DNA from: Candidatus Bathyarchaeota archaeon B24 | GTDB taxonomy: Archaea > Thermoproteota > CALKCG01 > B24 | NCBI GenBank assembly: GCA_001593865.1 | Contig: LUCB01000002.1 | Span: 25,277 to 89,276 of the forward strand | Reading direction: 5' to 3' | Length of the DNA: 64,000 bases | Shown: in pieces, positions 3,846 through 44,141 of the stretch | Position numbering within the stretch: the first letter of the stretch is position 1 | Layout of the letters: each line of letters opens with the position of its first letter | Position numbers and translations under genes: made by a program | The notes under the pieces: generated by a model | What the model was told of the DNA's origin: nothing | Databases searched by the model: none | Seen by the model: the letters and a program-made list of their open reading frames with translations, nothing else

Positions 3846-4844
3846 ATGTCTAGACGTTTAGCCGTCGGGTTTATAGGATGCGGAGGTATAGCCAGAGCCC
3901 ACGTCGATAACCTCGCAAGACTTAATAGGGTGGAGCTTAAGGCGTTCAGCGATATATCCATCGATAGGGCTAAGGCCCTAGCCTCAACCTACGGTGGAGA
4001 GGCCTACGCAGATTGGAGGGAGATGCTTGAAAAATCTAAGCTCGACCTCGTCTTTATATGCCTACCCCCGTTTGCGCATAGGGACGAGGTGATGGTTGCG
4101 GCCGAGAAGGGAATACACATATACATCGAGAAGCCCATAGCCCTAGACATCGAGCTTGCTAGGGAGATGGCTAGGGCCGTCGAGAAGTATGGGGTTAAAA
4201 GCCAAGTAGGCTACCAACTGAGGTTTGCAGCCGGGGTGGAGAGAGCGAAGAGGATCATAGAATCCGGCGAGGCCGGCGCCATAGGGTTGGTTAACGGGGT
4301 CTATTGGTGTAGGTTTATCAGACGAGACTGGTGGATCGACAGGTCTAAGAGCGGGGGTCAGATAGTCGAGCAGTCTACCCACCTATACGACATTTTGAGG
4401 TGGCTATGCGGAGACGTGGAGAGGGTCTATGCGGAAATGGATAGACGATTCTACACCGATGTAGAGGGTATGACCATAGAAGACGTGAGCAGTGTGATGA
4501 TGAGGTTTAAATCCGGAGCCATCGGAGTCGTCTCTTCGACCATAGGAGCCGCCCCGGGATACTGGTGGCTGAGATGGAGCATAGTAGGACGTGACGCTAT
4601 GCTGGAGTCAGAAGACCCCAACCATCTGAGAATCTACTGGAGCGGTAAAACACCATTCACCATTGAGGAGCATAAGGAGCCTTCAAGAGCGCCTATGGCT
4701 CTGGCGGAATTGGACCTCGTGAACGCGATCCTAGAGGATAGAGATACGAGAACGCCGATATCTGAAGGGGTGAAAACCCTAGAGTTAACGCTTGCCGCCG
4801 TAAAATCGGCTGAGACAGGTAAACCGGTTACGCTACCTCTTTGA
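3846..4844 (+). CDS. Gfo/Idh/MocA family NAD(P)-dependent oxidoreductase
   Basis: N-terminal Rossmann motif GFIGCGGIARAHV, EKP motif, 332 aa. Confidence 0.8.
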   Translation: MSRRLAVGFIGCGGIARAHVDNLARLNRVELKAFSDISIDRAKALASTYGGEAYADWREMLEKSKLDLVFICLPPFAHRDEVMVAAEKGIHIYIEKPIALDIELAREMARAVEKYGVKSQVGYQLRFAAGVERAKRIIESGEAGAIGLVNGVYWCRFIRRDWWIDRSKSGGQIVEQSTHLYDILRWLCGDVERVYAEMDRRFYTDVEGMTIEDVSSVMMRFKSGAIGVVSSTIGAAPGYWWLRWSIVGRDAMLESEDPNHLRIYWSGKTPFTIEEHKEPSRAPMALAELDLVNAILEDRDTRTPISEGVKTLELTLAAVKSAETGKPVTLPL

Positions 4845-6384
4845 CCTCATCCTCCGTCGAACGGCCTACCAACCCCATCCTTTCCCAAGCGACTTTAGCT
4901 ACTACGCTTGTTTTAGCCGGGTAATCCCTCACGTCGACTTCGACTGTGACCGGGAACGGGACGGGGGACGCCATACCCCATATCAAAGCTTCATGGTCTG
5001 CTAAACCGGGGAGATAATCAGCCATCCGCTCGCTACCATACTCGGAGTATTTTATTATGGCCTCCTGGTCGTTACCGGCCATAAGCCTGAACGCGGCTAT
5101 CGTGTTACACTGCGAGATCACGGATTTAGAGACATAAGCAGGTCTCTGGGTAACCAGTATGAAGCCTACGTTGTATCCTCCTGCTTGACTTATGGCCTCT
5201 ATTATCTGCTTATCCACACCCGTCTTCTCCGGGCTTCCGACCTCTATCTTAAGACCCCTCTCAGGTATGAAATACTGAGCCTCCTCTATGACGAATATAA
5301 CCGCGAAGTCCCCGGCTCTCCTATGCTCTACAGCATAATGCATTACGTTCCTTATGATATACTTAGCCGCAAGCTGCTGATCCTCTATGTTCGCGTCGAC
5401 GGAGAAGTCCACTATAACCGCAGGATTCCGGTAGACCGTTTCTATTATGTTTAACGGCTTATGCTCTATCCCGAACAATTGACTCCCACGCTTATCGAGA
5501 ACCCACCTGATCTTCGCGAGCACAGAGTCCCTCCCCCTAGAGAGAAGATAAGGCGAGATCTCGACGCATTTCCTAAGGACGTTTTTAACCGTAAGCTCCA
5601 GCCCCTCCGCCCTTATGGAGTTCAAAGCCTCGCATAAAAGCCTACCATCGCTCCTCCGAGGGTCCAAACCCAGCCTGGAAGCGACAAGCTCAGGAGACAC
5701 AAGCTCCGCCCTAGGCACAAACCTGAAATAAGGAAGCATAACCGCACCATACTTAGTCAACAAGCTATACTCACACCGCCTATCGAAAACTATAAACCTA
5801 GGCTTAGGCTCCTGCTCCAACGACCTAGCCATAAGGTTCAACACAAAAGTGCTCTTCCCTGACCTTGTCATTCCTGCGACGAACATATGTCCCTTTGCTA
5901 TCGCGTTTAGGTCTAAGTAGAAGGGCATGTCTAGTCCCCTATGCCGTCCTATCTTCACCGGGAAGTCTGTTCTATCGATCAAACGTCTACCTGAGAGTTT
6001 CAGGAAGAAGCCTTTCAACTCCTCCTGGTTCGGTTCGTATACCGAGTCCCATGTATTCGGGCTGCATTCGAGCCTCCTCCATTTCCCATCCCAGGAGATG
6101 TAGCCTAAGACCTCCGCCCAGGCCACCAGGTATTCGAGCTTCTTCCCATAGTATGCTTTCTCACCCTTCTTACCGGCTATGGGTCCGAAGCTTCCCACGG
6201 TCATCTCAGGATTATAAGGCGTTATCTTGTGAACCCTCAGCAAGACGGGGTTGAATTCTCCTACAGGGCTTAAGGGGTGGTTGATGAAGTAGTAGCCGTT
6301 TACATAGACCTCCGCGTCCTCCATGACGACGAAGGAGACTCTGTTTTGATTGCAGCCAGATAACACATAGCCTATCTGCCTCAA
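4828..6384 (-). CDS. herA: HerA-like FtsK/HerA-superfamily ATPase
   Basis: Walker A GMTRSGKST. Walker B FVIEEAQYF. VTQRP sensor motif. N-terminal beta-rich (HAS-barrel-like) region. 4-nt overlap with the upstream NurA-like gene. Confidence 0.75.
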   Translation of the reverse strand: MRQIGYVLSGCNQNRVSFVVMEDAEVYVNGYYFINHPLSPVGEFNPVLLRVHKITPYNPEMTVGSFGPIAGKKGEKAYYGKKLEYLVAWAEVLGYISWDGKWRRLECSPNTWDSVYEPNQEELKGFFLKLSGRRLIDRTDFPVKIGRHRGLDMPFYLDLNAIAKGHMFVAGMTRSGKSTFVLNLMARSLEQEPKPRFIVFDRRCEYSLLTKYGAVMLPYFRFVPRAELVSPELVASRLGLDPRRSDGRLLCEALNSIRAEGLELTVKNVLRKCVEISPYLLSRGRDSVLAKIRWVLDKRGSQLFGIEHKPLNIIETVYRNPAVIVDFSVDANIEDQQLAAKYIIRNVMHYAVEHRRAGDFAVIFVIEEAQYFIPERGLKIEVGSPEKTGVDKQIIEAISQAGGYNVGFILVTQRPAYVSKSVISQCNTIAAFRLMAGNDQEAIIKYSEYGSERMADYLPGLADHEALIWGMASPVPFPVTVEVDVRDYPAKTSVVAKVAWERMGLVGRSTEDEVKEVA

Positions 6385-7529
6385 ACGCCCTCACCCTCAA
6401 GACCGTCGAGCCCGCTGTTCAAAACCCAGCTCTCCCCGTACTCTAAGAGAAGCAGGTCTAGGTCCTTGAGCTCCATCTCCCCTCTTTTGACGAGCTCTAA
6501 GGCTTTAGAATAGAGTACGAGTGAATGTACGTTAGACGTCGGACGCGTTATCCTCGAAAGCCTATCTGCTTCATGAATCGGATACGGTATACCGTTTAGA
6601 CCAGCCATGGTCCATACGATCGACATCAGCTCCTCAATCTTGTCCAAGCAGAACAGTGGAATTTCGACCCTAAACGGCATAGACCCTGTCTTGACGTAGC
6701 TGGAGTATATCACCGGTAGAGTGGAGCTGTAGCCTAGGTCCTCGGCGACCGCTTTGTAGGACTGTGTGATCTCGTTCTCGACCCTAAACGGCTCCGAGTA
6801 CTCTCCCTCTCGGAGTATAAAGTTCATCAATATAGAGTCTCTTATCTGAGGGTTCTTGGTATACGACGTGTAGAAGCTCATATGCGTGCGTTTCACAAAC
6901 CCTAGGACCGGCACCTTGAACTTTCTACAGTTCTCTAGAAGCTCAAGCACCGTTATGACCGTGAAGTAGAAGTCCCCTTCATACTGAGGTGAGGTTTTAA
7001 ACCCGGGGTATAACCTCGGGTTGAGGACTATCCCCCCGTCCAGCAGCAGGTAGTCCGGCTTCCACCTTTCGACGGCTTTAGACGCCACGTGGTATTCCAA
7101 GGCCATGTGAAGCAGGCTTTCACGCTTATCAGGGTCGACTTCAGACGTCCATAGATCAGGTGGACCGGTTACGCATAGAGGCTCCTCTACTATGCTCCAG
7201 TTTTCAACCAGAACCGCTACCGCACCGTATAGAGGGATGTATGCGAACTTATACTCTGTCCCGTTTCTACCAGCGTCTACACCCACTATCCTAGACGATG
7301 CCGGTCCATCCTCGTCATACATGGCTTTGTAAACCTTAACCCTGCCTCTGAGGTCGTCTATAAGTCTATGTATCTCCTTCCTATACCTCCTCAGCCTGTC
7401 TAGGAGAAGTTCCGTTCCCTTGTCGATAAGCTCTTGGTACAGCTTGATGTAGGGCATCTCCTTGAGCCATAAGGCTGCCCTCAAATTATCTTGGTCATTG
7501 CTTGTTGAGGGGGAAACGCTTATATCCAT
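6381..7529 (-). CDS. nurA: NurA-like nuclease
   Basis: Acidic motifs spaced as NurA D/E/D catalytic residues (GVDAGR ... HMALEYH ... LLLDGG). Gene order nurA-herA with overlapping stop/start. Confidence 0.6.
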   Translation of the reverse strand: MDISVSPSTSNDQDNLRAALWLKEMPYIKLYQELIDKGTELLLDRLRRYRKEIHRLIDDLRGRVKVYKAMYDEDGPASSRIVGVDAGRNGTEYKFAYIPLYGAVAVLVENWSIVEEPLCVTGPPDLWTSEVDPDKRESLLHMALEYHVASKAVERWKPDYLLLDGGIVLNPRLYPGFKTSPQYEGDFYFTVITVLELLENCRKFKVPVLGFVKRTHMSFYTSYTKNPQIRDSILMNFILREGEYSEPFRVENEITQSYKAVAEDLGYSSTLPVIYSSYVKTGSMPFRVEIPLFCLDKIEELMSIVWTMAGLNGIPYPIHEADRLSRITRPTSNVHSLVLYSKALELVKRGEMELKDLDLLLLEYGESWVLNSGLDGLEGEGV

Positions 7530-7574
7530 GCAATCACCAACGTTAGTTAGGGAGGAACCACCTTATAAGTGTTG

Positions 7575-7596
7575 TTGTTGATTGTTCAATCAACAA
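7575..7596. promoter_or_regulatory. Perfect 22-bp palindrome TTGTTGATTG-TT-CAATCAACAA in the divergent promoter region between nurA-herA and the wHTH paralogue array
   Basis: Read directly: 10-bp arms are exact reverse complements. Sits 12 bp upstream of the 7608 start. Confidence 0.7.
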
Positions 7597-7607
7597 AGTG
7601 AGTACAG

Positions 7608-8006
7608 ATGGAAAATAGGAAGGTTAAGATACGGTTGAAATACCGTGGAGTAGAGGCGGAGATAGAGTGTGAAGAAGACCAGCTTAGAAAAGCCGTGGAG
7701 GAATTTCTCACAGCCTTCCAGAACGTCCCTATCAGCGAACGTGAGCCTGTTAAGCCGGAGGGTAAGGAGGTTAGGGAAATACCCTCTACTTGCAGAGGGG
7801 TGATTCTCAGCCTATGGCGGGAAGGCTGGTTTAGCGTAGGAAGGACTTTAGCCGAAACCCATGAGGAGATGAGTAAACGTGGATTCCACTACGATAGGAC
7901 AGCGGTGGCTCACATGCTAGCAGACCTCGTCAGAAGCGGGATACTCTACCGGGAAGGTAAGAAAGGTAAGTATAGGTATTACCAGAAACGCCCTCCCGTT
8001 ATGTGA
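7608..8006 (+). CDS. Small putative DNA-binding protein with C-terminal winged-helix; shortest member of a 4-gene paralogue array
   Basis: N-terminal strand motif KVKIRLKYRGVEAEIECEED shared with the three downstream paralogues. C-terminal wHTH-like AVAHMLADLVRSGILYREGKKGKYRYY. Confidence 0.5.
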   Translation: MENRKVKIRLKYRGVEAEIECEEDQLRKAVEEFLTAFQNVPISEREPVKPEGKEVREIPSTCRGVILSLWREGWFSVGRTLAETHEEMSKRGFHYDRTAVAHMLADLVRSGILYREGKKGKYRYYQKRPPVM

Positions 8007-8046: not shown

Positions 8047-8137
8047 ATGGAAAAATCCATAGAATTCGCTCGCTTGTGTTTACCCTGTTATTCCCACGGA
8101 TTTATACCACGGATTTCTTCCATAGATTTTTATGGAA
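8047..8137. repeat. Cluster of short inverted and direct repeats in the 219-bp intergenic region upstream of the 8226 operon
   Basis: ATGGA-AAAA-TCCAT (8047-8060). Direct repeat CCACGGATTT x2 (8094-8103, 8107-8116). TTCCATA-GATTTT-TATGGAA (8118-8137). TCCATAGA and ATGGAAAA each occur twice. Confidence 0.6.
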
Positions 8138-8225
8138 AATATCTGGGTTAAGAGTTTTTATGTTTGGGAACCTGAGGGAATAGGTATAAGCTTATATACA
8201 AGTTGGTCTAAATTCTTTTACTAGA

Positions 8226-8768
8226 ATGAGCGGTGTTAAAGCGGTTTTTCAGACGTGGTTCGGTTCGCTAGAGTTCGAGTTTTCAGATTCTGAGGAGCTT
8301 AAGAGAAAGCTTAGACTCGTCAAGGCCATAGTGGAAGAGGCTTCTGCGATGGGTCTCGAAGGAATGTTGAGGGTTAAACAGGTTCTGGAGGCTGACCGTA
8401 GGTCGAGGGTTCTATACATTCCGGAGAAGGGATCTGAGGTGCCCAACCTCTTAGAAGGAATAGTTGAGCTAAGCGTCGACGGTCCTGTGATAGTCGCTCC
8501 TGAGAAGGCTAAGTTGAGCCAGTATGAGGCTATAGGTCTCGTGTTGTATGCTTCTGAGGGACAGATATCCGACCCTAAAACGATAACTTTACTACTCCGT
8601 AACTCTGGAATCAAGGTCTCGAACACCTCAGCTAGGCTTAAAGAGATGGCTAAAACCGGCAAGGTGTTCAAACCCAACCCGAAGGAGGCTCTATGGAAGC
8701 TTTCAGCCCAAGGCCAGCTTTGGGTCGAGAAAACGATACTTCCCAAGCTTAGGGAGGCCACCTTATGA
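8226..8768 (+). CDS. Paralogue 2 of the small wHTH family
   Basis: VKAVFQTWFGSLEFEFSDSEEL N-terminal motif. C-terminal region alignable to paralogues 3 and 4. Stop overlaps the next start. Confidence 0.5.
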   Translation: MSGVKAVFQTWFGSLEFEFSDSEELKRKLRLVKAIVEEASAMGLEGMLRVKQVLEADRRSRVLYIPEKGSEVPNLLEGIVELSVDGPVIVAPEKAKLSQYEAIGLVLYASEGQISDPKTITLLLRNSGIKVSNTSARLKEMAKTGKVFKPNPKEALWKLSAQGQLWVEKTILPKLREATL

Positions 8769-9253
8769 GCCAGCTGAGGGTTAAAGTCTTCTTCGAGGGG
8801 GGAGCGGCTGAATTCTCAGGGACGGTCGAAGACGTCGCAAGGGGATTTCTGAAATTTCTCATGGAGCTATATCCAGAGATTAAGCTCGTTAGGAACTTGA
8901 GCTTAAGTCTAGACCTTGAGGAGGTTTCAGAAGCCCTTAAGGGCTTAATCGCTATTCATCCGGAGCCTGTTATACTGGTCGATACCGGTAGCTTAACCGT
9001 TTCAGAGAGTTGTCTCTTAGCGTTGATAACTAAGTATCTGGCCTATATGTTCGGTAAATCTGATAAGCCCTCGGCGTCTCTGGAGGAGCTGTCTAAACAG
9101 CTAGCTAAGTCTAGGAAAACGCTTAGCGCTAGGTTAAGTGAGCTTCTAAACAGGCAGCTGGTCGAGAAGCTCGAGAGAGGAGAGTATAAGATTACTTTGA
9201 AAGGGTTGAATACCTTCATCTCAGATGTCGTCCCGAAGTTCAGGGGTGGGTAG
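8765..9253 (+). CDS. Paralogue 3 of the small wHTH family
   Basis: VKVFFEGGAAEFSGTVEDV N-terminal motif. wHTH LSKQLAKSRKTLSARLSELLNRQLVEKLERGEYKITLKGL. Clear pairwise similarity to the 9256 gene. Confidence 0.55.
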   Translation: MSQLRVKVFFEGGAAEFSGTVEDVARGFLKFLMELYPEIKLVRNLSLSLDLEEVSEALKGLIAIHPEPVILVDTGSLTVSESCLLALITKYLAYMFGKSDKPSASLEELSKQLAKSRKTLSARLSELLNRQLVEKLERGEYKITLKGLNTFISDVVPKFRGG

Positions 9254-9255
9254 TA

Positions 9256-9735
9256 TTGAGCGAAATAGAGGTTAGGGTCAAGTTAGGTGAGATGGAAACG
9301 TCGTTTACAGGTAAGTTGGATGACGTTATGGAAGCCGTCTTTGAGTGGCTTAGCAAGGTGTACCCGGCTTACGAAGCCATTTCCAAGATAGTGTATGAGC
9401 CGAATCTCGATAGGCTTATGAGAGAATGTTCAGACCTCTTGACGATAACGGAGGGGGGTATAATACTTAGGAAAACGGGTTTAACCGCAGAGGAGGCGAT
9501 AACGCTGAGCCTGGTGGGTGCTTATATAGGGTTCAGGATAGGGAAGTTAGAGAAGGAGTGTATGACACCGGCTGAGCTTTCTAGGACCACGGGTAAGGCT
9601 TTGAAGACGATATACAACACTTTAGCCTCCATGGTGAAACAGGGACGAGTGGTGAGGGAGAGTGGAGAATATAAGCTTACAAAGCTTCATATCGCGAAGT
9701 TCGTCTTCGACCTACTGCCTAGGCTTAAGGAGTAG
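9256..9735 (+). CDS. Paralogue 4 of the small wHTH family
   Basis: VRVKLGEMETSFTGKLDDV N-terminal motif. wHTH LSRTTGKALKTIYNTLASMVKQGRVVRESGEYKLTKL. Confidence 0.55.
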   Translation: MSEIEVRVKLGEMETSFTGKLDDVMEAVFEWLSKVYPAYEAISKIVYEPNLDRLMRECSDLLTITEGGIILRKTGLTAEEAITLSLVGAYIGFRIGKLEKECMTPAELSRTTGKALKTIYNTLASMVKQGRVVRESGEYKLTKLHIAKFVFDLLPRLKE

Positions 9736-11706: not shown

Positions 11707-12156
11707 TTGAAAATACCTGAGGCATTATCTAAGCTATTCGGTAGGAAGAAGGCTAGGGCTCCCCCGTCGATCGATAGAGATGTCGTATTAGGGCTGGTTC
11801 CCATTAGAAACCCGGCTATAGAGTGGCGTAGGTATAAAAGCGGCGAGGTGGCTATCATAGTAACCGTTAAACGAAGGGGTCTGATGGCGCGTATAGATAA
11901 AGGTGAGAAAAAGAAGAAGATAATACTCGATAAGATGGGTTCTCATGTGTGGAACCTATGCGACGGCGAGCACACGTTCGGAGACATAGTCGAAGACCTC
12001 GTGAAGACCTATAAAATGCATAGGAGAGAGGCGGAGCTTTCCCTCGCAAGCTATTTCGACACTCTGATGAAGAAAGGTCTCATAAGCTTTATCCCAGGAA
12101 AGCTTTCGACGCTAAGGGAGCGTGGAGAAGTTAAGCAGGAAACCCCGCAGACGTAA
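11707..12156 (+). CDS. PqqD-like (RiPP-recognition-element-like) small protein
   Basis: PqqD signature LDKMGSHVWNLCDGEHTFGDIVEDLVKTY...YFDTLMKKGLI. Paralogue of the 18760 gene. Confidence 0.55.
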   Translation: MKIPEALSKLFGRKKARAPPSIDRDVVLGLVPIRNPAIEWRRYKSGEVAIIVTVKRRGLMARIDKGEKKKKIILDKMGSHVWNLCDGEHTFGDIVEDLVKTYKMHRREAELSLASYFDTLMKKGLISFIPGKLSTLRERGEVKQETPQT

Positions 12157-12955
12157 GCGGCCGTCTAGGGGTAGGAGCTTCTTCATACTTCAGGCGATCG
12201 GGATTTGGTTTAAAGAGGTATCTAGGAGAATCGGGCTAGTCATAGTGCATCCCTTCCGGGCGTTCAGCGAGATAGCGGAAAACCCCGACCTAGGGGGCCC
12301 TATACTCGTATTGTCCCTCGTAACGGCCCTCGACCTAGTAAACAGGTATATTCTCTATACCTACAAGACAAAGCTTTACATCGTGAAGAACCCAGGGTGG
12401 TATCAGCCTCAGCCAGGTCTTCCCCCGATGAACGTTTACACCCTATACACGCTTGCGATGACTTTCCTAATCTACATGGCTTATATGGTGTTGAAGAGCG
12501 TGTTAATCTACTATCTATCCGCATGGCTCTTAAGGGGGGAGAGAAGCTTCACAAGCCTACTGATAGCCACTATCTACTCCTTCAGCGTCTACATCCTCCG
12601 AAAAACCGTGGAGATCGTGTTCGCACTGTATATTCTTCCCCCCGTCGACATATATACGACCGTTAGAGACGACCTTCTCGCGTTAAGCTCCTCTACAACG
12701 CTTCTATTGCTTAATGAGGATTATAAGCGTATAGCCTTAGCCCTCAGTGAAGCTAGCAGAAAGGCATGGGAAAACCTACCGGTCTCTAAGGTCATGACGT
12801 ATGTTGTCTATGGATTCGACCTGTGGGTATACCTAATCGGAATACTGATAGTGTACTATATAACGGAGTTACCTAAGGATAAAGCGGTTATAGTGGGAGT
12901 GCTTCCCCTAGTTTTAGACGTGTTTTTAAGAATGGTCTTCACGAGACCTTCCTAA
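12122..12955 (+). CDS. Yip1-like multi-pass membrane protein
   Basis: NPDLGGPIL motif preceding the first TM. At least 5 hydrophobic helices. The first 35 nt overlap the PqqD-like gene, so the true start may be downstream. Confidence 0.45.
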   Translation: MEKLSRKPRRRKRPSRGRSFFILQAIGIWFKEVSRRIGLVIVHPFRAFSEIAENPDLGGPILVLSLVTALDLVNRYILYTYKTKLYIVKNPGWYQPQPGLPPMNVYTLYTLAMTFLIYMAYMVLKSVLIYYLSAWLLRGERSFTSLLIATIYSFSVYILRKTVEIVFALYILPPVDIYTTVRDDLLALSSSTTLLLLNEDYKRIALALSEASRKAWENLPVSKVMTYVVYGFDLWVYLIGILIVYYITELPKDKAVIVGVLPLVLDVFLRMVFTRPS

Positions 12956-13692: not shown

Positions 13693-14589
13693 TTAGACGA
13701 GAGTACAGCTATAAAGCGTTTTCCTTATGAGCCCTGTACCATCGCATATGTCCGTGTTCAGACAGGCTAGGTTCTCCCTACACGATGCAAAGCTCATCCC
13801 ATATCCTAAAACCAGGGACCTCAGCGTCTTAACTATTCTATGACGGTAGTCCTCTGGGAGATACTTGTATCCGTGTATCCATCTCCCTCTTGAGTAGATG
13901 TTTCTAAGCCTATAGTATAGGTCTAGGTTAATCCTCTTAAGAGTCTTGAAGAAGCCTCTTACAGGTTTAAGCGTCGAAACAGTCACATGTCTGACACCTG
14001 AAGAAGCTAGGGTCTCGACTAATTCTTTAAGCCCCTCGGGGTCGTCGTTTAAACCCGGTATTATCGGGTCTATCCTAGCCCCGACCGGTATGCCTGCTTT
14101 CGACAGCCTCCTCAAAGCCTCGATCCTCTTCGAGGGGTTGGGTGCCCCGGGTTCCATGAACGACGTGAACTCCTCATCTAGGGAGGTGACCGTGAGCGTA
14201 ACCACAGCGGATGTCTTAGCCAACAAGTCCAGATCCCTAACCACTAGGTCGGACTTCGACACTATCAGGATGGGGAAACCGCCGTCGACCAAGACCTCTA
14301 GTATCTTCCTTGTCAACATGGTCCTTCTTTCGATAGGCTGGTATGGGTCTGTACAGTCGCTGAGCATGACCGGTAGCTTAACCGCAGCTAGACGCCTCTT
14401 ACGTTTAAGCTTCTCCAAAAGCTCAAACCTAGGTTTAACCTCCCCCCTGAAGGCTGGGAATTTAACCGAGTAGCAGTATAGACAGCCATGCCCACATCTG
14501 CCGAGATACGGGTTTATGTTAAACTTAGGGGGACATGTACAGTAAGCCTCGGGTGGAGACCTGAATCTGGGAAGGGCCACGAGCATCAC
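13693..14589 (-). CDS. Radical SAM protein, spore-photoproduct-lyase/DNA-photolyase-like subfamily
   Basis: CGHGCLYC (CxxxCxxC) near the N-terminus. About 300 aa with no SPASM tail. Start overlaps the mtrH stop by 4 nt. Confidence 0.6.
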   Translation of the reverse strand: MMLVALPRFRSPPEAYCTCPPKFNINPYLGRCGHGCLYCYSVKFPAFRGEVKPRFELLEKLKRKRRLAAVKLPVMLSDCTDPYQPIERRTMLTRKILEVLVDGGFPILIVSKSDLVVRDLDLLAKTSAVVTLTVTSLDEEFTSFMEPGAPNPSKRIEALRRLSKAGIPVGARIDPIIPGLNDDPEGLKELVETLASSGVRHVTVSTLKPVRGFFKTLKRINLDLYYRLRNIYSRGRWIHGYKYLPEDYRHRIVKTLRSLVLGYGMSFASCRENLACLNTDICDGTGLIRKTLYSCTLV

Positions 14590-18759: not shown

Positions 18760-19164
18760 TTGGTGAACCTGTTGAGTAGGGATGTCCTCGACTACGTGGC
18801 TGTGAGGAACCCCGAGTTGGAGTGGGGGTATGAGCCTACAGGAGAGATGAGTGTCGTCATTAGGAAAAGGGGGCTTCTGGGCTCTAGGGCTAAAAAATAT
18901 ATTTTCGACGAGATAGGCTCTTACGTCTTGAGGCTTCTCGACGGTAAGAGAACCCTCAGAGAGGTCGCACATATGCTGGCTTCCACAAGGGGTATGAATA
19001 TCGAGGAGGCTGAACGTGCGCTAGTTAAATACGTCGAGAAGCTTAAAGAACGAGGGTTGATCTCTCTTCTACCGCATAAAGCGGTTAAAACCTGTGTGAG
19101 CTGTGGGGCTGAGATACCTTCCAACGCGTTCTACTGCCCCTACTGCGGTGCAAAACAGCCTTAG
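18760..19164 (+). CDS. PqqD-like small protein fused to a C-terminal zinc ribbon
   Basis: FDEIGSYVLRLLDGKRTLREVAHML...YVEKLKERGLISL (PqqD-like). C-terminal CVSCG...CPYCG. Paralogue of the 11707 gene. Confidence 0.55.
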   Translation: MVNLLSRDVLDYVAVRNPELEWGYEPTGEMSVVIRKRGLLGSRAKKYIFDEIGSYVLRLLDGKRTLREVAHMLASTRGMNIEEAERALVKYVEKLKERGLISLLPHKAVKTCVSCGAEIPSNAFYCPYCGAKQP

Positions 19165-43799: not shown

Positions 43800-44141
43800 T
43801 CAGCCGAATAACGCACTCAGCCCCTCTAAAGCCTCCTCCTCTTCCTCCTCCTTCTTCTCCTCCACTTTCTCCTCTTCCTTCTTCTCCTCCGCGGGCGTAG
43901 GTGCTGCCGCAGGAGCCGCCGGTGCCATAGGCATAGCAGCCGCACTCTTCAAAGCCTCTTCGAGGTCTATCTCAGATAGAGCCGCTAGAAGAGATTTTAT
44001 CTTAACCTCGTCGGGTTCGATGTTAGCCGCCTTTAAGACTTTCCTCAGGTTCTCCTCGTTTATCTCCTGCCCGGCATGGTGGAGGAGGAGGGTCGCATAT
44101 ATACACTCCATCTCTCTCAACCTCCCGTAACCGTTAACCAA
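43800..44141 (-). CDS. rpl12: Ribosomal stalk protein P1 (aL12/L12e)
   Basis: [18 protein letters not shown]. Ala/Pro hinge. Acidic tail ending GLSALFG. Confidence 0.9.

Follow-up and report, generated by a model that had tools for sequence, protein, structure and literature searches.

What does a nurA-herA gene pair do when it stands apart from mre11 and rad50, with an inverted repeat in front of it and a winged-helix gene reading away from it on the other side of that repeat? The question is raised by a 64,000-nucleotide stretch of the genome of Candidatus Bathyarchaeota archaeon B24 (contig LUCB01000002.1, positions 25,277 to 89,276; hereafter the window), in which nurA and herA follow each other on the minus strand and a small gene, here called wH1, diverges from nurA on the plus strand. 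The original prediction, made from the letters alone, took the pair for an accessory, possibly defensive module. The analysis described here leads to a different answer. Judged by sequence and predicted fold, the window carries a bona fide NurA-HerA pair, and this pair would act as a DNA-end-processing machine that is repressed by wH1 and regulated with the break-repair switch of these archaea, a reading to which we give a probability of roughly 0.6.

The nurA gene (6381-7529, minus strand) encodes 382 amino acids as called and belongs to a family that we call type-1, a name coined in the present analysis. The protein matches the Pfam family NurA (PF09376) with an E-value of 3.1e-19 and 69.9 bits, against a cutoff of 21, over profile positions 3-254 of 254. 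It had first been recognised by its D/E/D residues, and this identification holds: in an alignment of 20 homologues D85, D164 and E320 are invariant, E137 and D322 are nearly invariant, and a C-terminal (H)EAD-type motif is invariant or nearly so, alongside the D...E...D acidic metal-binding residues. A search of the PDB with the single sequence gave no match, and profile and fold searches were required to reach the solved structures. The family profile (A2) matches NurA from Sulfolobus solfataricus (2YGK) at 1.9e-5 with the VGVDAG and LLLDGG motifs aligned, the D85 and D164 motifs facing VAIDGG and ILMDGS of that protein. The AlphaFold2 model, with a predicted local distance difference test score (pLDDT) of 83 and a predicted template modelling score of 0.80, adopts the RNase-H-like NurA fold, and its ten best Foldseek matches in the PDB are all solved NurA structures: 2YGK comes first (2.9e-12, template modelling (TM) scores 0.61/0.72), followed by chain G of 9X1L/M/N and by 3TAI/3TAL/3TAZ, at a sequence identity of only 12-15%. 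By these criteria of sequence and model the protein is a member of the NurA nuclease family with intact catalytic residues, and nuclease activity is predicted for it.

Its partner, herA (4828-6384, minus strand; 518 amino acids; type-1 family), encodes an FtsK/HerA-superfamily ATPase of the hexameric type. The two open reading frames (ORFs) share positions 6381-6384, the TTG start codon of herA lying over the TGA stop codon of nurA, so that the 4-nucleotide overlap originally described is real. The protein matches the HerA central domain (DUF87, PF01935) at 8.5e-13 and 49.3 bits (cutoff 23.2) and shows the Walker A (AGMTRSGKST), Walker B (IFVIEEAQYF) and TQRPAY motifs from which it had been named. 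The corresponding residues G171-S178, E367/E368 and Q413-R414-P415 are invariant in the 22 homologues of alignment A1, and the profile built from this alignment finds HerA from S. solfataricus (4D2I) at 6.7e-19, over residues 99-469, and HerA from Thermococcus kodakarensis (9X1L; PMC12977600) at 7e-19. The N-terminal region of type-1 HerA is distinctive and strongly conserved across A1, with PYNPEM and other motifs.

The family to which the pair belongs is not a sporadic one. A scan taking one genome per species returned 74 type-1 loci, almost all of them in metagenome-assembled genomes (MAGs) of Bathyarchaeia, with a few in Korarchaeia-like, Nitrososphaerota and Hermodarchaeota MAGs; homologues with a source name are likewise nearly all from Bathyarchaeia, which, rather than Thermoprotei, with whose operons the locus had first been compared, is also the class of the hydrothermal source MAG. 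The window proteins themselves have identical copies on hydrothermal-vent metagenome contigs and in the Bathyarchaeota MAG GCA_003662455.1. At every one of the 74 loci for which upstream flank was available, nurA lies directly 5' of herA. The neighbouring genes are mostly housekeeping genes, among which a GFO-type oxidoreductase and a CN-hydrolase recur, and no relatives of type-1 HerA were found among IMG/VR viral contigs, where a scan with wH1 was negative too. Several HerA orthologues of 800-1400 amino acids (P0008, P0012, P0116-P0119) carry an intein domain (PF14890), encoded at L018:7922-11077, L058:8615-11209, L061:8594-11104, L067:9995-14194 and L065:8603-11056. The insertion site can be placed near residues 165-173, at Walker A (the P-loop), because two contigs of one MAG match residues 1-173 (L066) and 165-503 (L017), and the HerA of L067 is long enough for two inteins. 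Given the 74 conserved loci, the recurrent neighbours, the inteins and the absence from viral contigs, type-1 looks like a core, stable gene pair rather than an island gene, and sequence comparison suggests that it represents an ancient NurA-HerA family, one of two in Bathyarchaeia, that is kept throughout the class and in some lineages close to it.

Three further observations concern this distribution. Two separate complete type-1 loci occur in only one MAG, CAYYPV01; they belong to different subclades, with 56% (L015) and 50% (L046) identity to the window, so that either the bin is mixed or the locus has truly been duplicated. At the first of them an array of winged-helix genes related to that of the window lies directly upstream of nurA, without wH1. 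A typical Bathyarchaeial type-1 nurA-herA with 48% identity is found on a contig labelled Candidatus Krumholzibacteriaceae bacterium (L049, DATKLC010000096.1), which is probably a mis-binned archaeal contig.

The family that is often tied to break repair in these archaea is a different one. A second Bathyarchaeial pair, for which we coined the name type-2, consists of a NurA-like protein of 310-365 amino acids and a DUF87 protein of 492-505 amino acids, and more than 538 relatives came up when metagenomes were scanned with the type-2 profile; 80 loci were fetched from among these. Type-2 HerAs are 46-83% identical to one another and barely detectable from type-1 by BLAST; profile-profile comparison with hhalign shows homology to type-1 HerA over the full length, at 19% identity and a probability of 96%, so that the type-2 proteins are only remote paralogues of the window pair. 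The locus L087 encodes a type-2 pair followed by Mre11 and Rad50, and at 20 of the 80 metagenome loci Mre11, usually accompanied by Rad50, is encoded downstream of the type-2 pair. On contig JAWBXL010000009.1 a type-1 herA and a wH1/type-2 cluster lie about 30 kb apart, showing that both families coexist in one genome; the second nurA-herA that the original prediction had suggested looking for thus exists at the level of the class, type-2 being widespread and sharing a contig with type-1 in this one MAG. Type-1 has its own tie to repair at locus L079, where herA ends 12 nucleotides before mre11 and rad50 follows directly, the one such case among the 74 type-1 loci in a phmmer search with the Mre11 and Rad50 of L087. 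At two type-2 loci (L083:3908-5293 and L088:1709-3094) a TIP49/RuvB-like AAA+ gene stands immediately beside, and convergent to, herA.

What links the window to the type-2 loci is, first, a putative regulator. The wH1 gene (7608-8006, plus strand) encodes a 132-amino-acid winged-helix protein that is the candidate regulator acting at the operator described below. Its AlphaFold2 model shows a beta-hairpin (5-22), a helix (23-38), a disordered linker and, at a pLDDT of about 90, a winged helix-turn-helix (wHTH) domain at 62-126, built of a three-helix bundle (62-71, 81-90, 97-109) and a wing (strands 113-116 and 123-126). Foldseek returned generic wHTH matches only, to the DNA-binding domains of Fur, RTP, Zalpha and RosR (target TM score at most 0.83, E-value at least 0.015), and Csa3 and CARF models gave no match, the N-terminal part being modelled as the hairpin and single helix. 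The homologues number 1571 in total; among the 120 listed, none has a Pfam domain, and those with a source name are called hypothetical and come nearly all from Bathyarchaeia. Locus-tag prefixes are unique among these 120, which is weak evidence that wH1 is single-copy per genome. A divergent wH1 is present in all 58 type-2 loci with room upstream, and in seven of seven look-ups of wH1 homologues the gene stands next to a nurA-herA pair, of type-2 in five, and reads away from it. In a neighbour-joining tree, those type-1 loci that have wH1 beside them group as a single, monophyletic clade.

Downstream of wH1 on the same strand come three paralogous wHTH genes, wH2, wH3 and wH4 (8226-8768, 8765-9253 and 9256-9735), with weak matches to TrmB, HTH_24 and the C-terminal domain of Csa3; the match to the C-terminal wHTH part of Csa3 models is confined to wH3 and wH4, which are mutual paralogues. 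This array had been counted among the signs of an accessory region, a view that its distribution does not support: at least 34 type-2 loci have wH2 and wH3/4 homologues next to wH1, and the synteny on the wH1 side is kept in type-1 and type-2 contexts alike, which makes the array a conserved companion of the break-repair cluster of Bathyarchaeia (wH2-wH3/4, wH1, divergent nurA-herA, mre11-rad50). In the window clade type-1 holds the position beside wH1 and the array that elsewhere belongs to type-2. The 219-nucleotide gap between wH1 and wH2 contains a 20-nucleotide imperfect inverted repeat (8105-8150; 75% complementary, 6-nucleotide loop) that could be a control site or a terminator for the wH2-wH4 genes.

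The second link is the DNA between the two divergent genes. The nurA-wH1 intergenic region is only 78 nucleotides long and holds a palindrome and a TATA box. The palindrome, an operator candidate at 7575-7596 with no strand assigned, consists of the arms TTGTTGATTG (7575-7584) and CAATCAACAA (7587-7596), which are fully complementary, separated by TT. It had been described as a perfect 22-bp palindrome in the nurA promoter. The perfection of the 10-nucleotide arms is confirmed and lies far beyond chance, the repeat being unique in the 64 kb even at three mismatches and absent from 100 of 100 shuffles, whereas the non-symmetric 2-nucleotide spacer breaks the 22-mer; likewise, the repeat does lie upstream of nurA, but the control region belongs to the divergent wH1 as well. 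In the six closest relatives neither arm shows a single change (100% conservation), the spacer varies (AA, TT or AG) and the flanks have diverged. The TATA box CTTATAAG (7562-7569, unstranded) is preceded on the nurA strand by an invariant CAACA(C/T), and we take the two, from what is known of archaeal promoters, to be the TATA box and the B recognition element (BRE). In an alignment of 13 type-1 loci with wH1, at HerA identities of 55-80%, the blocks TTGATTG and CAACA-Y-TTATA are invariant and the CAA just 5' is nearly so. Type-1 loci outside the wH1 clade have a plain TTTAAA-type promoter in which the repeat elements are absent.

A half-site of the operator, TTGGTGATTG (7531-7540, minus strand), lies about 23 nucleotides downstream of the TATA box towards nurA and abuts the nurA start; it is among only three matches to TTGTTGATTG at no more than one mismatch in the 64 kb and is kept in clade A. 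The element contains a GGTGAT core resembling a Shine-Dalgarno sequence. A role as a mere Shine-Dalgarno sequence was considered, but the type-2 counterpart, which keeps the position relative to the promoter yet is too far from the start codon, argues against it.

The operator differs in detail between lineages. In another type-1 subclade the place of the repeat is taken by a perfect palindrome of different sequence, TTGTTGAA-CA-TTCAACAA. Type-2 loci have perfect palindromes of 13-2-13 or 28 bp, or TTGTGCA-N9-TGCACAA, abutting CAACATTTA(A/T)ATA, and further towards nurA, by about 25-45 nucleotides, ATTGGTGAAT-NN-TTGKTGATTGAACAAT. The element TTGKTGATTGAACAAT is found in type-2 loci 25-45 nucleotides downstream of the TATA box towards nurA, whereas the window has the full palindrome upstream and the half-site downstream. 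The type-2 cluster nevertheless shares with the window the promoter elements CAACA-YTTAWATA and TTGGTGA(A/T)T, the latter at the same relative position as TTGGTGATTG, as well as the motif TTGKTGATTGNNCAAY, which is common to the window clade and the type-2 loci. When the pattern TTG[GT]TGATTGNNCAA[TC] was counted in 83 loci, it gave 48 matches, all 48 of them inside the wH1-nurA intergenic zone, which makes up 2.3% of the sequence of these loci. A conserved, highly specific dyad thus adjoins a conserved TATA box and is strictly associated with a wHTH gene and a nurA-herA operon, and the suggestion that the palindrome marks dedicated transcriptional control is borne out by the conserved arms, the variable spacer and the confinement of the motif to this zone. 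A scan for sigma-70 promoters and terminators, of no relevance to an archaeon, gave nothing above chance.

Taken together, these elements suggest the following mechanism. A compact divergent promoter common to wH1 and the nurA-herA operon would drive transcription, and the 4-nucleotide overlap would couple the translation of nurA and herA. A wH1 dimer most likely binds the 10-2-10 inverted repeat, which abuts the BRE/TATA, as well as the TTGGTGATTG half-site, at about which nurA transcription is predicted to start. The TATA box and an A-rich upstream block would face nurA, with the dyad abutting or overlapping the BRE, while on the wH1 side the dyad would sit between TATA and ATG; placed in this way relative to both promoters, a bound dimer would repress in both directions. 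Repression of nurA-herA and of wH1 itself would persist until a signal, plausibly DNA damage, releases wH1. By homology, the HerA ring would then feed duplex DNA ends into the NurA dimer, which would degrade them in resection or processing. Elsewhere in Bathyarchaeia, type-2 nurA-herA, with or without mre11-rad50, would answer to this regulator and motif, and in the window type-1 would have come under that switch.

Several points weigh against this reading. On the protein side, HerA stays far below the equivalog cutoffs of repair HerAs (47.2 bits against 970 for NF040819, helicase_HerA, and 43.2 against 800 for NF040937, HerA_Thermprot), and its PDB matches, by single sequence and by profile, are not limited to the two repair HerAs but extend to several chains named HerA or ATP-binding; on these scores it would be placed in a divergent subfamily, as no equivalog of repair HerA. 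The functional reading of the whole type-1 family rests on homology, and type-1 adjoins mre11-rad50 in only one of the 74 loci, L079. On the DNA side, operator sequences vary by clade and the recognition helix of wH1 is nearly invariant, so that the specificity of wH1 for the motif is not straightforward. A second TATA-like element of putative function, GATATAAG (7519-7526, minus strand), overlaps the annotated nurA start region, lies within a block, GGTGATTGCATGGATATAA, that is conserved as DNA in the six close relatives, and has a comparable counterpart, AATATAAG, upstream of nurA in clade-B relatives; its presence makes the repression geometry uncertain.

The same element bears on the alternative that survives best, namely that the palindrome could serve wH1 autoregulation only, as an operator of wH1 or of wH1-wH4, with nurA-herA transcribed independently, for example from 7519-7526. 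For wH1, the repeat falls in the stretch from TATA box to start codon, 11 nucleotides ahead of the ATG, which is the classic position for archaeal autorepression. The first codons of nurA also look non-coding, which would suit a promoter there: codons 1-24 lack third-position bias, and residues 1-27 are modelled at a pLDDT below 50 and are unconserved across homologues. The first 27 nucleotides of the gene, inside which GATATAAG lies, are highly conserved as DNA. The real start of nurA may be Met25 (7457), with 7457-7529 as promoter or 5' untranslated region. Three facts nevertheless make a purely autoregulatory operator rather unlikely. Whichever type of pair is present, wH1 is always divergent from it in the loci and look-ups counted above, an invariable arrangement that would be surprising if the two were functionally unconnected; in type-1 and type-2 contexts alike, copies of the motif such as TTGGTGATTG are found beyond the TATA box towards nurA; and the right arm reaches up to or into the invariant CAACA, which resembles a BRE, on the side facing nurA.

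A second alternative accepts the pair as genuine and changes its task: type-1 would be a DNA-pumping or chromosome-resolution system rather than a break-repair one, with end resection left to the canonical type-2 pair. An FtsK-like role for archaeal HerA has been raised, HerA and FtsK belonging to one family and archaea being without FtsK (PMC12977600). The occurrence on one contig of two pairs as divergent as type-1 and type-2 suggests different jobs, the N-terminal region of type-1 HerA is a distinctive one, and in most lineages type-1 is found with a plain promoter and without wH1. Against this stand the complete set of catalytic residues kept by NurA, the MAG in which type-1 forms an apparent operon with mre11-rad50, and the window clade, in which type-1 occupies the wH1-controlled position otherwise held by type-2. 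We consider such a role improbable.

The third alternative, close to the original prediction, would make of the locus a stand-alone anti-virus module, with a defence-type HerA and NurA as a nuclease effector whose toxicity calls for tight repression. PADLOC HerA models do match the ATPase (best 3e-31), the NCBIfam model HerA_antiphage is the top-scoring named HerA model at 74 bits, the PDB matches extend beyond repair HerAs as mentioned, and a defence role for some archaeal NurA-HerA is suggested by Csa3a-bound promoters and by the CRISPR-linked nurA-csm6-herA cluster of Pyrobaculum (PMC5587795, PMC12977600). Such a module is very improbable here, since the scores lie about 10-fold under the curated cutoffs of the anti-phage systems (74.3 bits against 800 for NF042943 and 55.1 against 850 for NF042944) and the matched stretch is mostly confined to the C-terminal half of the protein's ATPase, NurA matches no PADLOC model, Pfam annotation of the genes up to 10 kb from the pair shows no cas families and the 64 kb hold no CRISPR-like array, the family looks conserved rather than sporadic, was not found on viral contigs and has recurrent synteny, housekeeping neighbours and inteins, and L079 ties it to mre11-rad50. 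With the anti-phage systems the pair shares the HerA-family ATPase core and the pairing with an effector enzyme, the partner here being NurA instead of a PADLOC effector, and from the Pyrobaculum cluster it differs in lacking cas genes and arrays over the distances just given.

Set beside the known systems, the regulated end-processing pair proposed here resembles the canonical archaeal complexes of S. solfataricus (2YGK/4D2I), T. kodakarensis (9X1L-9X1P) and Pyrococcus furiosus (3TAI/3TAL/3TAZ) in its two-component, adjacent and translationally coupled architecture, in the NurA fold and acidic catalytic residues, and in a HerA core matching nearly the full length of 4D2I. It differs from them in its very low identity, its sub-equivalog scores and the N-terminal region of HerA. 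The pair lies outside any herA-mre11-rad50-nurA operon and has the gene order nurA then herA; as originally claimed, no mre11 or rad50 stands beside it, a search that covered the window's large ORFs and, through matching contigs, flanks of about 8.6 kb to the left and 10 kb to the right having found none. Sulfolobus islandicus has, in addition to a nurA-mre11-rad50-herA operon, a second nurA-herA operon, SiRe_0094/0095, and Csa3a binds both promoters at imperfect palindromes (PMC5587795). Compared by description, the extra stand-alone operon and the winged-helix regulator at a palindromic promoter site are alike. However, Csa3a is a CARF-wHTH protein and an activator, whereas wH1 is without CARF and diverges from its presumed target, a geometry that suggests repression. 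Stand-alone nurA-herA operons are also known from Deinococcus radiodurans (7F6D) and Thermus thermophilus, whose acquisition from archaea has been proposed (PMC12977600); these are likewise minimal resection machines with no adjacent mre11/rad50, but they are bacterial, and a dedicated divergent wHTH regulator with its operator is not described for them in the literature examined.

The remainder of the window is ordinary chromosome, with genes for alanyl-tRNA synthetase (AlaRS), ribonucleotide reductase, ilv/leu enzymes, pta-ack, ribosomal protein L10 and MtrH, and its only tandem repeat is a run of about 20 copies of CCT (43832-43890). The vWA protein at its left edge (119-1321) is the C-terminal part of a 585-amino-acid protein with a weak vWA match; on the matching locus L171 (6989-9939) it is preceded by a 400-amino-acid AAA_5 (MoxR-like) ATPase, which makes the two a MoxR-vWA-type pair outside the NurA-HerA system. 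The PqqD-like genes (11707-12156 and 18760-19164) lie about 7 kb apart, and the same block contains a Yip1-family membrane protein gene and a radical-SAM gene (12122-12955 and 13693-14589). The block o245/DUF2116/o305/PqqD/Yip1 is syntenic in locus L016 and is therefore conserved rather than an island. Beyond the left end of the window by roughly 5-9 kb, and about 10-14 kb beyond herA, L171:1-3263 encodes a DHH/DHHA1 (RecJ-like) protein, a 583-amino-acid zinc-ribbon protein and an HhH-GPD glycosylase, with an AP_endonuc_2-fold gene nearer to herA; these genes may form a loose cluster of DNA-repair functions.

The literature yielded no description of how HerA, NurA, Mre11 or Rad50 are organised in Bathyarchaeia, and the class-wide divergent wHTH family, its operator motif, the two ancient NurA-HerA families and their exchange in one clade, on none of which a paper was found, appear to be new. 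A broader proposition, which we regard as tentative and somewhat doubtful, is that wH1 is a class-wide dedicated repressor or damage switch and that type-1 displaced type-2 behind the same operator in the window clade. If this were true, two motor-nuclease machines at 19% identity would be functionally interchangeable. The regulation of double-strand-break repair in archaea outside the Sulfolobales is largely unexplored, and to our knowledge these archaea have no LexA; the locus offers a testable regulator-operator pair tied to nurA-herA, with or without mre11-rad50, across an ecologically abundant class. An exchange of one pair for another at a regulated locus also bears on whether the extra NurA-HerA pairs of archaea are redundant, specialised or defensive.

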